This document shows positions 5,307 through 13,360 of a stretch of 13,361 nucleotides of DNA, one piece after another. Both the position numbers and the translations under genes were made by a program. Position 1 is the first letter of the stretch, and the number at the start of each line of letters is the position of its first letter. Under the pieces are notes generated by a model. The model saw nothing but the letters and a program-made list of their open reading frames with translations. It did not search any database and was not told where the DNA came from. Source of the stretch: Archangiaceae bacterium. GTDB taxonomy: Bacteria; Myxococcota; Myxococcia; Myxococcales; Myxococcaceae. The DNA is taken from the NCBI GenBank assembly GCA_043750125.1, contig JAYVCD010000167.1, forward strand, positions 1-13,361. Reading direction: 5' to 3'.

Positions 5307-6200
5307 CCGCGGCGTGCTCGAGCACCAACAGCGCCACGTCGTAGGTGGTCTTCACCCGCGTCGCGTAGTCCTTCCAGGAATGGGTTTCGACCAGCACCCC
5401 GAAGCGGTGGTGCGAGGCCCAGTACGCGTGGGAAATGCGCAGGGGAGGAACCCCGTACCCGAACCCGGACAGCGGCTCGTCGTTCTTCTAAAACGCGGGG
5501 CAGAAATCGAGCGGCATCTGGCCCAGCGCGGTCAGCTCTTTCATCAGTGCATCACTGAGCTCGAAGCCCAGGGCGTTGAGCTCAGCGGTGCCACTGAAGC
5601 GGGGCTCGGGTGTCACCCCGACGTCGGGTTGGAACTTCGCTCCGTCGGTGACGTGCAGGTCCGCAAAGAGAATCGGGTCGTACTTCAGCAGCAACTTCAA
5701 CATCGCCTGCATCTCGGGTGCGTCGGCCTTGATCCAGTCGCGATTCAAGTTCAGGTTCTGCGAGGTGACGCGCCACCCCATCTGCTCGGGGCCATTCTGG
5801 TTGGGGCGATTGTTGGGGCCGTACCGTTCGTGGCCGTCGACGTTGATCACCGGGACGAAGACGAAGGTCACCCGCCCCAGCAACCCCGGCGACTGTTTCC
5901 CGTCGAGCAGCTGGCGCAACAGCCAGAAGCCCGCATCTTTGCCGTCGATTTCTCCGGCGTGAATGCCTCATTCCATCAGCACGACCGGGCGCTGCCGCTG
6001 GCCACCAGCGCGAGCATCGGCCGACCTTCGGGCGTGGTGCCGAACTTCTCGCACTTCACCTTCCCCGGAAATCGCTTCGGAAAGGCCGCGCACAGCCGCT
6101 CGACTTCTTCGTAGCGTCCGGTCTGCTTCCACCCGGAGCTTTCGGCGGTCGTCGACAGCGGGTCAGCGGCGAGAAGCAACAGGGACACGAGAAGCGCCAT
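5307..6200 (-). pseudogene. M14 zinc carboxypeptidase pseudogene (secreted)
   Basis: Signal peptide and AGGAG SD; motifs FG.TPEGR, GIHAGEIDG (HxxE), NVDGHE, NLNRD, DLHVTDG, LVETHSWK. Lesions: frameshift near 5985-6000, in-frame TGA at 5968-5970, in-frame TAG at 5488-5490, and 3' truncation near 5307. Confidence 0.9.
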
Positions 6201-6217
6201 GATTGTCTCCTACTCCC

Positions 6218-6278
6218 GAGCGGTGGAGACAGCGATCGCTTTTGAGCGCCTGAAATGTTCCCACCCGGCCCCGAGATG
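6218..6278 (+). repeat. Duplicated leader segment, copy A
   Basis: Exact 21-mer GAGCGGTGGAGACAGCGATCG (6218-6238 = 7125-7145). Similarity continues through GCGCCTGA, ATGTTC and CCGAGATG. Confidence 0.88.
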
Positions 6279-6338
6279 CGAGCCGCGTGACGAAGAGGAC
6301 CACCCGACGCTGGGCACCCTTCCCCCCCTCGTCAGGTC

Positions 6339-6547
6339 GAAGAGCTTCGGCCAGGCACGTCGGCGGTTCGTCCTCGGTGGAGCACGAAGTCCCGAACTTC
6401 CCGAAGTGGCTTTTGTGTCCAGAAGTCGCAGCACCCCGCTTTTGTCCCTGCCGACGCCGGAAATCGCGGGGTCCGATGGCGACTCGATTGAGCAGGAAGG
6501 AAGTCGTTCGATCTATTCGCGCCGGGTTTCCCCCGGGGACGTCCCAC
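6339..6547 (+). ncRNA. Candidate structured ncRNA / repeat unit, copy 1 (unassigned family)
   Basis: About 83% identical to 6858-7062 by hand alignment. Several hairpins are shared by both copies, with G-U pairs on the + strand and pairing-preserving changes. The repeat itself is certain; RNA function is inferred. Confidence 0.55.
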
Positions 6548-6629
6548 CTTTTCAAACGGGTGATCGGCAAGTCCGAGCACGTGCCGGGCAGTTGAAGAAG
6601 TTGAGCGCCCGTTTGCATTGAACGGGTGG
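6544..6629 (+). repeat. Long imperfect inverted repeat (hairpin)
   Basis: CCACCTTTTCAA/TTGAACGGGTGG (11/12 pairs) followed by ACGGGTGATCGGC/GTTGAGCGCCCGT (12/13 pairs counting G-U). Confidence 0.75.
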
Positions 6630-6694
6630 AAGGGGTTCACCAGATTTGCCCAACCGCTGTTGGAATCGCTTCAAACGGCCAATGGCAACCGAGG

Positions 6695-6774
6695 TGGTGT
6701 GGGTTACCCCCAGTGGTGTGGCTGACCGTCGAACCGCGGGGGTCAATCAACACCAGTGGGGGTGGGCCACACCA
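6695..6774 (+). repeat. Long imperfect inverted repeat (~33-bp arms)
   Basis: TGGTGTGGGTTACCCCCAGTGGTGTGGCTGACC (6695-6727) pairs with GGTCAATCAACACCAGTGGGGGTGGGCCACACCA (6741-6774), with 3 mismatches, 1 bulge and G-U pairs. Confidence 0.88.
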
Positions 6775-6857
6775 GATGGACAAAACCGTGGGGTTTCCGG
6801 TGCTCAAAGCGTTCTTGGGGTGACCTGACAGGCGCGAACGCCCGGCTCCCACGCAAG

Positions 6858-7062
6858 GAAGAGCTTCGGGTCGGACTTCGGCGGTTCGTCCTCGGTGGAG
6901 CGCGCGAAGTCCCGCACTTCCCGAAGAGGTTTCTGCTTCCAGAAGTCACCGCACCCGCCTGTCTTCCCTGCCGACGCCGGAAGTCGCGTTCTCCGATGGT
7001 GACTCGATTGAGCGAGAAGAGAGTCGCTCGATCTGGGTGGGTTTCCCCCAGGGGCGTGCCAC
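6858..7062 (+). ncRNA. Candidate structured ncRNA / repeat unit, copy 2 (unassigned family)
   Basis: Second copy, 519 bp downstream of copy 1. Shares exact blocks such as CGGCGGTTCGTCCTCGGTGGAGC, TCCCTGCCGACGCCGGAA and GACTCGATTGAGC. Confidence 0.55.
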
Positions 7063-7124
7063 TAAAGTCGATTCACGGCCAATGCCGCCCAGGAGGTGGG
7101 GGTTACCCACGACCTCGACCAACA

Positions 7125-7202
7125 GAGCGGTGGAGACAGCGATCGGTTAATGAGTGCGCCTGAGGTAGATGTTCGAAGCACCCCAAACGGAGCACCGAGA
7201 TG
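7125..7202 (+). repeat. Duplicated leader segment, copy A', ending at the ATG of the 63-aa ORF
   Basis: Exact 21-mer shared with 6218-6238. Ends in GGAGCACCGAGATG (SD + start). Confidence 0.88.
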
Positions 7203-7391
7203 ATCAAAACACCCCTGCGTCCGAAGCCTGAATTCAATGCGGACAATTCGCGAAAGGTCCTGTTGGGCGTCGGCCTGCTGGGCGTCGGGCTGCTCACCGC
7301 CGCGGCGGTGGGTCTGGTCGTCGTACGACGGCGAGAGCTGGGCTACGAGTACGAGCACGACTTCTACGCGATGCTCGGCATCGGGGCCTGA
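7200..7391 (+). CDS. 63-aa single-pass membrane peptide, function unknown
   Basis: GGAG SD upstream of the ATG. Hydrophobic stretch VLLGVGLLGVGLLTAAAVGLVVV followed by RRR. GC-rich third codon positions in the 3' two thirds. Confidence 0.68.
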   Translation: MIKTPLRPKPEFNADNSRKVLLGVGLLGVGLLTAAAVGLVVVRRRELGYEYEHDFYAMLGIGA

Positions 7392-7420
7392 GCGCAAGGT
7401 TTTCTGCGCAGCGGTGAAGG

Positions 7421-8269
7421 CTATCTGGGGGCCGGAGCGAGGAACTTCACCGCTCCCGAGATGACTTCCGCGTTGCGCAGCGGTCGGTAGTGGCCCAACC
7501 CCAAGGTGACTTCCAGGTGGGCGCCGGCCCAGTGACGCACCAACGCCTGCGTCTCACTGAACGGAACTTCCGCGTCCTGGGGATCATGAGCGACCCACAG
7601 CGGGACTTTCAGCTGCAGGCGTTCCAGCCGGTAGCGGTCCCATTCTTTTTGAAACCGGGTCTCCAGCTGCTGCTGGAGGACAGCCATCGTCGCGGTCGGC
7701 AGCCCGACGATCGACTGAAAGCGTTTGGCCCCGGCTTCGAGGCTCGAACCCGGCGCGATCAACGCCACCCGGTCGATCTGCAGGCCGTCGGCGATTGCGA
7801 TGATCACGCTCATCGCCCCCAGCGAATGCGCGATCACCCCGCTGGCGGGCCCGAAGTGCTCGGCGGCCTTCTCGAGCGCCTGGGCGAACGCCAGAACCGA
7901 GGACTGAGCCGCGAACGCTTCCCCGTGGCCCGGAGCGTCGAGCAGCACCGCGGTGCGCCCCGCCGCGACCAGCGGGCCGACGAACGCTGAGAGCTGAAAG
8001 CCGCGCCCGCCCCACCCATGCAGCAGGTACACCGCGGGGCCCGAGCCGTACCGCCACGCGATCGCCCGCCCCCCCGCAGTCATCAGGTCGACCCGGTGCC
8101 CTTCCCCCGCCAGGTTGCGTGAAAAGGGAGGCCGCGGAGGCCGCAGGAACAACCGCCCCGCCGCGCGCGCAGCGACCGAAGTCGAGACCGCATCCAAAGA
8201 GGCCAGGCCGCCGCGAATCGCCATCAGCGACAGCCGCTGCCGCAGCGCCAACTTCGGAAGAGGAATCAC
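7421..8269 (-). CDS. Alpha/beta fold hydrolase
   Basis: LLHGWGG oxyanion motif, DAPGHG, AHSLG nucleophile elbow, HD..D.EVP and GLGH. GTG start with AAGAGG SD. Confidence 0.92.
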   Translation of the reverse strand: MIPLPKLALRQRLSLMAIRGGLASLDAVSTSVAARAAGRLFLRPPRPPFSRNLAGEGHRVDLMTAGGRAIAWRYGSGPAVYLLHGWGGRGFQLSAFVGPLVAAGRTAVLLDAPGHGEAFAAQSSVLAFAQALEKAAEHFGPASGVIAHSLGAMSVIIAIADGLQIDRVALIAPGSSLEAGAKRFQSIVGLPTATMAVLQQQLETRFQKEWDRYRLERLQLKVPLWVAHDPQDAEVPFSETQALVRHWAGAHLEVTLGLGHYRPLRNAEVISGAVKFLAPAPR

Positions 8270-11878: not shown

Positions 11879-12120
11879 CGGTCACCCGCGCGGATGACCC
11901 GGCCGGGCATCTGCGCTCGGGTGTAGTCGGCGGCTGGCGTGCCCATCAGCGCCCAGACCGAGCTCGCCAGACCCCACATCATGCCCAGGCGCTGCTCGAG
12001 CGTGGTGCTGTCACTGAGGTCTTCGTCGCCCAGGCTCACTGAAAGCGTCGTCTTCCCACCCGGCCACGAAGCGCGGGCGGCGGCGCGCTGCGCGAAACCT
12101 TCCTCGTCGGGCCTGGACAT
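11875..12120 (-). CDS. 81-aa hypothetical protein translationally coupled to the nucleotidyltransferase
   Basis: MSRPDEEGFAQRAAARASW...EQRLGMMWGLASSVWALMG...PGRVIR. Its stop overlaps the NTase ATG (ATGA at 11875-11878). The ORF-track extension to 12174 is intron domain VI sequence. Confidence 0.72.
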   Translation of the reverse strand: MSRPDEEGFAQRAAARASWPGGKTTLSVSLGDEDLSDSTTLEQRLGMMWGLASSVWALMGTPAADYTRAQMPGRVIRAGDR

Positions 12121-12209
12121 AGGTGGATGGGGGCGCCGGTTTCGCTCACGCGATCCGGTTTCCCCCACCTCCATTCAAACCGTGCATGCGGATTTCCCGC
12201 ACACGGCTT
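12119..12209 (-). ncRNA. Group II intron ribozyme domains V and VI
   Basis: DV AAGCCGTGTGCGGGAAATCCGCATGCACGGTTT (12209-12177) with AGC triad and 2-nt bulge. DVI stem GGTGGGGG/CCCCCATC with inner CCGG/CCGG helix and candidate bulged A before CCTAT. Confidence 0.92.
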
Positions 12210-13360
12210 TCGTTTGAGGTTTCACGGTGCAGCGTGCACGGCTTCGGGTAACGAATTGTTCCACGCAATCGGTGCAGGCCCTTGGCTTCGTACTCCTCCC
12301 GCTCCCAGCAGATTCGCTGGCCGGGCTTCGCATGTCGCTGGTACCGCTCTAGCCGAAACATGTTCAGCCTTCGGACGACGTACTTGTCGAGCTGGTTAAA
12401 CTTCAGGGCCGCGTTCCCGGTGCGGAAGTAGTTGCCCCAGCCTTGGAGCACGGGGTTCAGGTCGTCGATGAGCACCTTGACGTCCTTCACTCCACCACGC
12501 CGTCGGTCGGTCAGCTCCTTCACCCTCGTCCGCACCCGCGTCATGCTTCGCTTCGAGGGCCAGCGCTGAAGGTAGTAGCGACGAATCCGCTTCTCCTCCC
12601 AGAGCTTCCCCGACATCCGCATGTGCAGGTGACAGCCGAGAAAGTCGAAGCCTTCCTTCCCTTCGGTGAGGTCTACCTTTCGCGTCTTCTCCGGGTGCAG
12701 CGTCAGCTTCAACCTCTCGAAGATGATGCGCACTCTTCGTTCGGCTTCTTCCACGTCTTCGCGGCTTTTGCAGAGCACCACGAAGTCGTCCGCGTAGCGC
12801 ACCAGCTTGCCGATTTGGGCGCACTGGCGTTGCCACACGGAGTCGAGGAAGTGCAGGTAGATGTTCGACAGCAACGGAGAAATGACTCCGCCTTGCGGCG
12901 TACCCGAGACCGTCTCTGAGTACGTGCCGTTTTCCATCACGCCTGCCTGAAGCCAACCACGCAGCAACTTGAGGACCCTTCTGTCGCTGACCCGCTTCGA
13001 GACCCGTTCCATCAGCAGCGACTGATTGATGCTGCCGAAGTAGTCGTGAATGTCCGCGTCCAGCACATGTCGCCACCCGGCGTTCACTTCTTCCCGGATG
13101 GTTTCCAGTGCCTGCAACGTGTTCTTGCCCGGCCGGAAACCGAAGGACGAGGGTTGAAAGTCAGCCTCGAAAATCGGCTCCAACACCAACTTCGCCGCCG
13201 TCTGCACGATGCGGTCTTTGACTGTCGGAATCCCCAGAGGCCGCTGCTTGCCATCCGCCTTCGGGATGTACCGCCTCAGCACGGGAGGTGGCCGGTACTT
13301 TCCTGCGTGGAGCTCTTCTTGAAGCTCGTTCAGCAGCTTCTCGACGCCGTACTCCTCCAC
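12146..13360 (-). CDS. ltrA: Group II intron reverse transcriptase/maturase, 5' end outside the window, no endonuclease domain
   Basis: [49 protein letters not shown] and maturase LN..L.GW.NYF motifs. No HNH domain. Confidence 0.97.

Follow-up and report, generated by a model that had tools for sequence, protein, structure and literature searches.

A modular, non-coding interspersed repeat family, probably confined to one lineage of Myxococcaceae, behind a tandem pair of hairpin-bearing sequences

The small mobile repeats of bacteria include MITEs (e.g., Correia/NEMIS of Neisseria and ERIC of enterobacteria), the REP/BIME repeats of proteobacteria, which are mosaic elements with RAYT transposases and palindromic units of 20-40 nt, and the BOX elements of Streptococcus pneumoniae, which consist of boxA-boxB(n)-boxC modules. 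The target duplications usually left by transposons are far shorter than 36-53 nt. We analysed a stretch of 13,361 nt (the window), which comprises all of contig C167 in the genome G000 (6.17 Mb, 460 contigs, 89% complete) and contains two look-alike sequences of about 205 nt. These two sequences are probably core plus tail members of a lineage-restricted, non-coding, modular family of interspersed DNA repeats, and the family itself, judged by analogy, is likely to be closest to the small mobile repeats of the MITE, BIME or BOX type.

With MITEs the family shares its small size (about 120-700 nt), its non-coding nature, its multiple copies and its intergenic position, as well as a presence that differs between close relatives and subfamilies of similar age; in the sister species G001 only, two inverted cores of about 145 nt bracket a central palindrome, in the manner of long TIRs. 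It differs from MITEs in that the units of G000 are one-ended, with no terminal inverted repeats found on them, and in that neither a short target duplication of fixed length nor a parent IS with matching ends was found. The likeness to REP/BIME lies in a mosaic of palindromic units and short motifs that vary in order and number, and in a palindrome (module M) that also occurs solo; however, M is 82 nt long compared with 20-40 nt, the core of about 115-145 nt is non-palindromic, and a Y1_Tnp domain (PF01797) was detected in none of the five genomes of the genus. BOX elements, which we compared by their description, are similarly modular and non-coding, with local hairpins and one module (here the tail module T) in variable number, but the family studied here has far fewer copies (nine in G000) and larger modules. 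The structured RNAs of Rfam resemble it only in being non-coding and in containing hairpins.

A repeat search of the window confirmed two direct copies, A (6339-6547) and B (6858-7062), at the positions given in the original prediction; they align with 80.1% identity over 211 columns (blastn, E 1.15e-46) and contain in-register blocks of 133 nt (82%), 30 nt (93%), 24 nt (88%) and 12 nt (100%). Contigs from public DNA runs, which may include the sample of origin, bridge the arrangement from 6085 to 6942 and from 6628 to 7500 with 0 differences each, indicating that it is no assembly artefact. The pair had been described as a tandem unit of about 205 nt; the two copies stand, whereas the boundaries were incomplete and the repeated unit is larger and modular, the sequence between the copies being also repeated and belonging to the same element family. 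About 870 nt of the window (~6254-7124) are missing at the orthologous sites of the sister genomes G002, G003 and G004, and this insertion forms a head-to-tail array with a period of 519 nt, in the order core A, T, L, M, S1, core B, T, truncated L and M. The features of the region are the following (coordinates in the window, strand, description):

5976-6200, - strand: flanking 74-aa gene (GC3 0.83), outside the element; its orthologue lies beside the empty site in G002-G004
6218-6253, no strand: left flanking direct repeat, a duplicated native intergenic stretch, of which the orthologous G003 site has a single copy
6254-6338, + strand: left junction stretch, absent from the orthologous sites in G002, G003 and G004
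6339-6452, + strand: core module, copy A, matched by nhmmer and by the covariance model
6453-6522, + strand: tail module T, copy A, with a hairpin at 6486-6513
6523-6688, + strand: module L, with a small hairpin at its start; 6 copies in G000
6689-6792, no strand: module M, with an 82-nt near-perfect palindrome at 6693-6776, itself a dispersed repeat
6793-6857, + strand: spacer S1, from the alignment of upstream regions; leads into core B
6858-6972, + strand: core module, copy B, of a young subfamily
6973-7038, + strand: tail module T, copy B, with a hairpin at 7006-7033
7039-7124, + strand: truncated third unit and right junction, absent from the sister genomes
7125-7163, no strand: right flanking direct repeat, continuous with the native sequence 5' of the 63-aa ORF
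7200-7391, + strand: flanking 63-aa ORF for a small hydrophobic protein (GC3 0.80), outside the element

By eye, the left junction stretch (6254-6338) looks like a degenerate continuation of the duplicated native sequence, resembling 7164-7205, and S1 is the outer right arm of a long palindrome. Spacer S1 is similar in the elements on C231, C339 and C416, and a different hairpin spacer, S2, takes its place on C43, C337, C325 and C119. The truncated third unit contains the first 24 nt of L (7039-7062, 88%) and the first arm of M (7088-7108, 21 nt, 86%). Palindrome M has a fold z of -4.78 (0 of 200 shuffles were as stable), which accounts for the z of -3.83 obtained for the whole unit, and module L (z -0.78) is not unusually structured. 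Two candidate identities of L were rejected: as a diverged inverted core it scored 16 against a shuffle mean of 16.1 (273 of 500 shuffles were as high), and the GG/GC spacing of a sigma-54 promoter fits, by eye, only two of its six copies. A Pfam search assigned no family to the flanking 74-aa gene. The 63-aa ORF represents a genuine small gene, conserved with homologues in the same place in G002-G004; it includes a hydrophobic stretch, and a tandem repeat of 15 nt (7259-7288) within it gives rise to a duplicated five-residue motif.

The pairwise alignment of copies A and B contains indels of 1, 2 and 5 nt and leaves them no reading frame in common, and GC3 is only 0.57-0.69 in all 12 ORFs that overlap 6201-7199, compared with 0.80-0.85 in four real genes. 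Because of the low GC3 and of indels that are not multiples of three, the element is non-coding; a coding potential is thus ruled out, in agreement with the earlier statement that the copies share no intact ORF. The pair is also not the product of a local tandem duplication, since cores A and B are 79% identical, whereas core B reaches 91, 91 and 90% with the cores on C231, C339 and C416, respectively. Core A is the most diverged core of G000 (66-79% to the other eight), and the covariance model scored it at 118.7 bits compared with 147.4 bits for core B. A and B therefore differ as an old and a more recent member of the family do, and not as tandem genes that drift under constraint.

A BLAST search of G000 with copy A gave 11 matches, and an iterated nhmmer search found the core (about 115 nt) in nine copies on eight contigs of this genome, plus two tail-only matches. 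Full units of about 450-620 nt are present on C231, C416, C43, C337 and C325, and truncated forms on C339 and C119. Tail T occurs in five copies, once after each core in the window and twice in tandem at C231; each of the six copies of L has a core downstream, with M in between in five of them. Palindrome M is more widespread, with about 17 loci in both orientations, 12 of which lie outside core-bearing elements (C396, C415, two on C267, C232, C453, C207, C109, C434, C272, C135 and C356), and some of these solo copies are, by eye, extended by outer arms to about 130-140 nt. The order of modules varies as well: T-L-M-S-core-T-L in the window, T-L-M-S-core on C43 and L-M-S-core-T-T on C231. The cores fall into subfamilies (C119 and C43 93% identical; core B with C231, C339 and C416 at 90-91%), and their conservation is block-wise, with 39 of 143 columns conserved at 90% or more in copies whose identity is about 60% elsewhere, a pattern equally compatible with an RNA and with recognition sites for a mobilising protein. 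At the core loci the element is intergenic, its orientation to the neighbouring genes is mixed, and an all-against-all blastp of the ORFs within 4 kb of the eight loci gave no matches except inside the repeat itself, where they fall in several frames on both strands.

Among 151 genomes of the bacterial family, a covariance model of the core matched only G000 (nine copies) and G001, a sister species of the same genus (78% complete, 1060 contigs). A closer search with the model revealed at least 40 cores in G001, a single match of marginal significance (E 0.006) in G003, and no core in G002, G004 and G005. On seven contigs of G001 the cores form divergent inverted pairs, with their conserved 3' ends outward and a strong palindrome between them; elsewhere in that genome they are direct tandems. 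Three G001 loci (L065, L085 and L090) are multi-core arrays in both orientations with two or more palindromes of about 50 nt. Many of the G001 copies are located on contigs of 2-3 kb, suggesting that the family fragments this assembly. A pattern scan of the genomes of 185,579 species returned 12 hits, two of them G001 loci and 10 from unrelated phyla; the latter were rejected, because none matched the model at E <0.01 (the best, L038, had 19.5 bits and E 0.012). In a metagenome scan, five of eight pattern hits were true cores and three were chance. Among the papers listed by full-text searches on miniature or palindromic intergenic repeats of myxobacteria, none deals with such repeats.

At the orthologous sites of G002-G004 the orthologues of the 74-aa gene (- strand) and of the 63-aa ORF (+ strand) adjoin, with a spacer of about 30-95 nt. 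The direct repeat that flanks the window insertion (6218-6253 and 7125-7163) is 36-39 nt long and 87% identical over 39 columns (z 12.9-13.9; local alignment score 50 versus 16.6 +/- 2.6 in shuffles). The copy on C231, absent in G001-G004, has a flanking repeat of 53 nt with about 80% identity (z 13.4-14.0). Significant flanking repeats, 36-53 nt in length, were thus found at two of the eight loci only, the other six core loci of G000 having none. The copies on C119 and C339 take the place of 44-100 nt in the sister genomes; the loci on C416 and C325 were excluded from the empty-site comparison, as the sister contigs break or diverge there. Overall, four G000 loci are empty or much shorter in the sister genomes and five G001 loci are empty in G000, the five G001 insertions missing at the matching G000 sites being 470-715 nt long. 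The junctions in G001 are ambiguous (flanks about 80% identical), and when their termini and duplications were read by eye, one site had a duplication of 10-11 nt and none was evident at the other four looked at. Since each of the two species has filled sites whose counterparts in the other are empty, copies were gained by both lineages after their split. A dispersed non-autonomous repeat, one of the readings that the original prediction had offered, is therefore the one borne out by the copy-number search of genome and family that it had proposed: nine cores in G000 and at least 40 in G001, with unrelated flanks and with sites filled or empty in both directions. Another lineage-specific intergenic insertion of G000 is located at C59:27019-27490 (about 470 nt, compared with 14 nt in the G001 locus L073).

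The original prediction had favoured a new structured ncRNA, in which the differences between the copies preserve helices (named i to v) on the + strand. If the core, or core plus tail, belonged to a multi-copy family of small RNA genes with a conserved fold, the window would contain two tandem paralogues, an explanation that we regard as unlikely. It could account for the conserved blocks in otherwise divergent copies, for the complementarity of the two most conserved blocks, at the ends of the core, whose closing helix is paired in 85-91% of cells, albeit in an alignment fitted to the model, and for the tail hairpin, which is predicted in both window copies and in four of the five T modules, with stem sequences that differ. 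In the RNAalifold consensus, too, 12 pairs show double-sided changes compared with 5.6 in shuffles (0 of 500 as high), although this alignment was fitted to the structure, so that the test is biased. However, the fold energies of the cores are those of shuffled sequence, with no excess stability: against dinucleotide shuffles, the + strands of the window copies have MFE z-scores of +0.33 and -0.44, their - strands +0.14 and -0.26, and the mean over 51 cores from both species is +0.04 (+ strand) and -0.11 (- strand). RNAalifold on 11 sequences gave -9.08 kcal/mol, the covariation term being 0.1. In a MAFFT alignment of 11 sequences, the fraction of paired cells in helices i, ii and v is 74.1%, versus 72.5% when partners are shuffled (43 of 500 shuffles as high), with a covariation score of 0.179 versus 0.170 (145 of 500); in an alignment of 59 sequences the values are 60.3% versus 57.9%, within what relatedness alone gives, with helix i paired in 49% and the inner helix ii in 47% of cells. 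A structure-blind scan of APC-corrected mutual information (MI) detected three column pairs above the largest shuffle value, but only 16-45% of their combinations are canonical, which indicates a signal of subfamilies and not of helices. The deeper alignment thus shows no significant covariation as far as the applied tests reach, and the apparent compensatory changes are at the level of chance for two repeats of about 80% identity and 63% G+C. The real local hairpins are only the tail hairpin (helix iii, 6486-6513 and 7006-7033, the former predicted in both the MFE and the centroid structure of copy A), the small hairpin at the start of L (helix iv) and palindrome M; helices i, ii and v pair no better than shuffled partners in the alignment of 11 sequences. 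A scan of the element for promoter patterns of the sigma-70 type, the type that it covers, found none, and the sole hit that resembles an intrinsic terminator falls outside the element. Rfam at gathering thresholds, searched with the whole window, had nothing in the element, its only hit being a group II intron at 12117-12211; with E up to 10, the region 6100-7300 gave two hits at the level of chance, one of 16.6 bits against a cut-off of 50 and one of 12.2 bits against a cut-off of 60. Mixed orientation to the neighbours, and copies that come and go between sister species, also argue against a family of small RNA genes, and the claim of a new structured ncRNA, for which neither excess fold stability nor, in the structure-blind scan, Watson-Crick covariation nor a sigma-70-type promoter or intrinsic terminator pattern was found, is not supported. 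The core may be under some sequence constraint, possibly together with its closing helix.

It is highly improbable that the tandem element serves as a riboswitch- or attenuator-like leader of the 63-aa ORF, a cis-regulatory role that had also been suggested. Copy B does lie about 140 nt upstream of this ORF on the same strand, but the ORF and its divergent neighbour are kept in G002, G003 and G004 with a short spacer and no element, the ORF retains its native 5' region downstream of the insertion (from 7125), and at the other seven loci with a core the genes downstream are unrelated and occur in either orientation. The units might instead be remnants or satellites of an integrating element, with circular or multimeric DNA that enters the chromosome by recombination and takes along or duplicates some of the target sequence; such an origin would explain both the permuted head-to-tail order of modules, as the orders in the window, on C43 and on C231 read as circular permutations of one array, and the long direct repeats (36-53 nt) at two loci. 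We nevertheless consider such an origin quite unlikely, because no recombinase is linked to the family, the flanking repeats are confined to two of eight loci, the plasmid and phage collections contain no match to the family, and the target sequences differ, so that there is no common attachment site.

In the reading as an interspersed repeat family, which we favour, the insertion of about 870 nt lies between two divergently oriented small genes and is a head-to-tail array of a unit of about 520 nt (tail T, L, palindrome M, spacer, core): core A is an older core that stands alone, core B closes the one full unit, and a third unit is truncated. Copies might have spread by trans-mobilisation or by recombination via an enzyme, and any effect on the neighbouring genes would be a by-product, for example through promoters pushed about 870 nt apart or through hairpins added to transcripts. 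A REP/RAYT mechanism was rejected because the Y1 transposase domain (Y1_Tnp, PF01797) is found in none of the five genomes of the genus, whereas six of 14 control genomes match. The 19-nt terminus of the core, searched with up to 3 mismatches in the two assemblies (89% and 78% complete), revealed no further copy beside a transposase or IS-like gene; five extra fuzzy matches look like chance. Retroposition-like 5' truncation, in which copies share the core end, was likewise discarded, as it misfits the right junction, which ends inside the truncated palindrome. A more specific proposal, to which we give a low probability, is that the unit of about 520 nt is a mobile DNA that encodes no protein, moves by an uncharacterised route and produces target duplications of 36-53 nt, its head-to-tail arrays, which read as circular permutations, hinting at a circular or rolling-circle intermediate. 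If this were true, the conserved core might be the recognition module for an enzyme, or might correspond to a small RNA made by the element.

These results remove a false lead, as the element is unlikely to represent a new riboswitch- or ribozyme-like RNA, and they point to an uncatalogued repeat family in one genus of Myxococcaceae, with nine copies in one species, at least 40 in a second, a single marginal match in a third and no copy detected in two further species. Such families break short-read assemblies, can mark recent genome dynamics and reshape intergenic regions, as in the case of the two divergent genes of the window, which have been moved about 870 nt apart. What stands out as odd is the length of the flanking duplications at two loci.

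Some other features of the genome were noted in passing. Around the core on C119, a region of 3.5 kb (C119:22058-25528) is without any ORF of gene-like GC3, and the matching regions of the sister genomes contain internal repeats, with several overlapping matches. In the window, the 143-aa ORF at 5488-5919 (- strand) has a partial match to Peptidase_M14 (positions 85-182 of 286) and is possibly a fragment or mis-started. Other genes of the window encode a short-chain dehydrogenase, an acyltransferase, an alpha/beta hydrolase and a RapA-like SNF2 helicase. At the contig end (12117-13360, - strand) there is a group II intron, where Rfam Intron_gpII matches 12117-12211 with 43.6 bits; upstream of this match is a 404-aa ORF with RVT_1 and GIIM maturase domains, which runs off the window.
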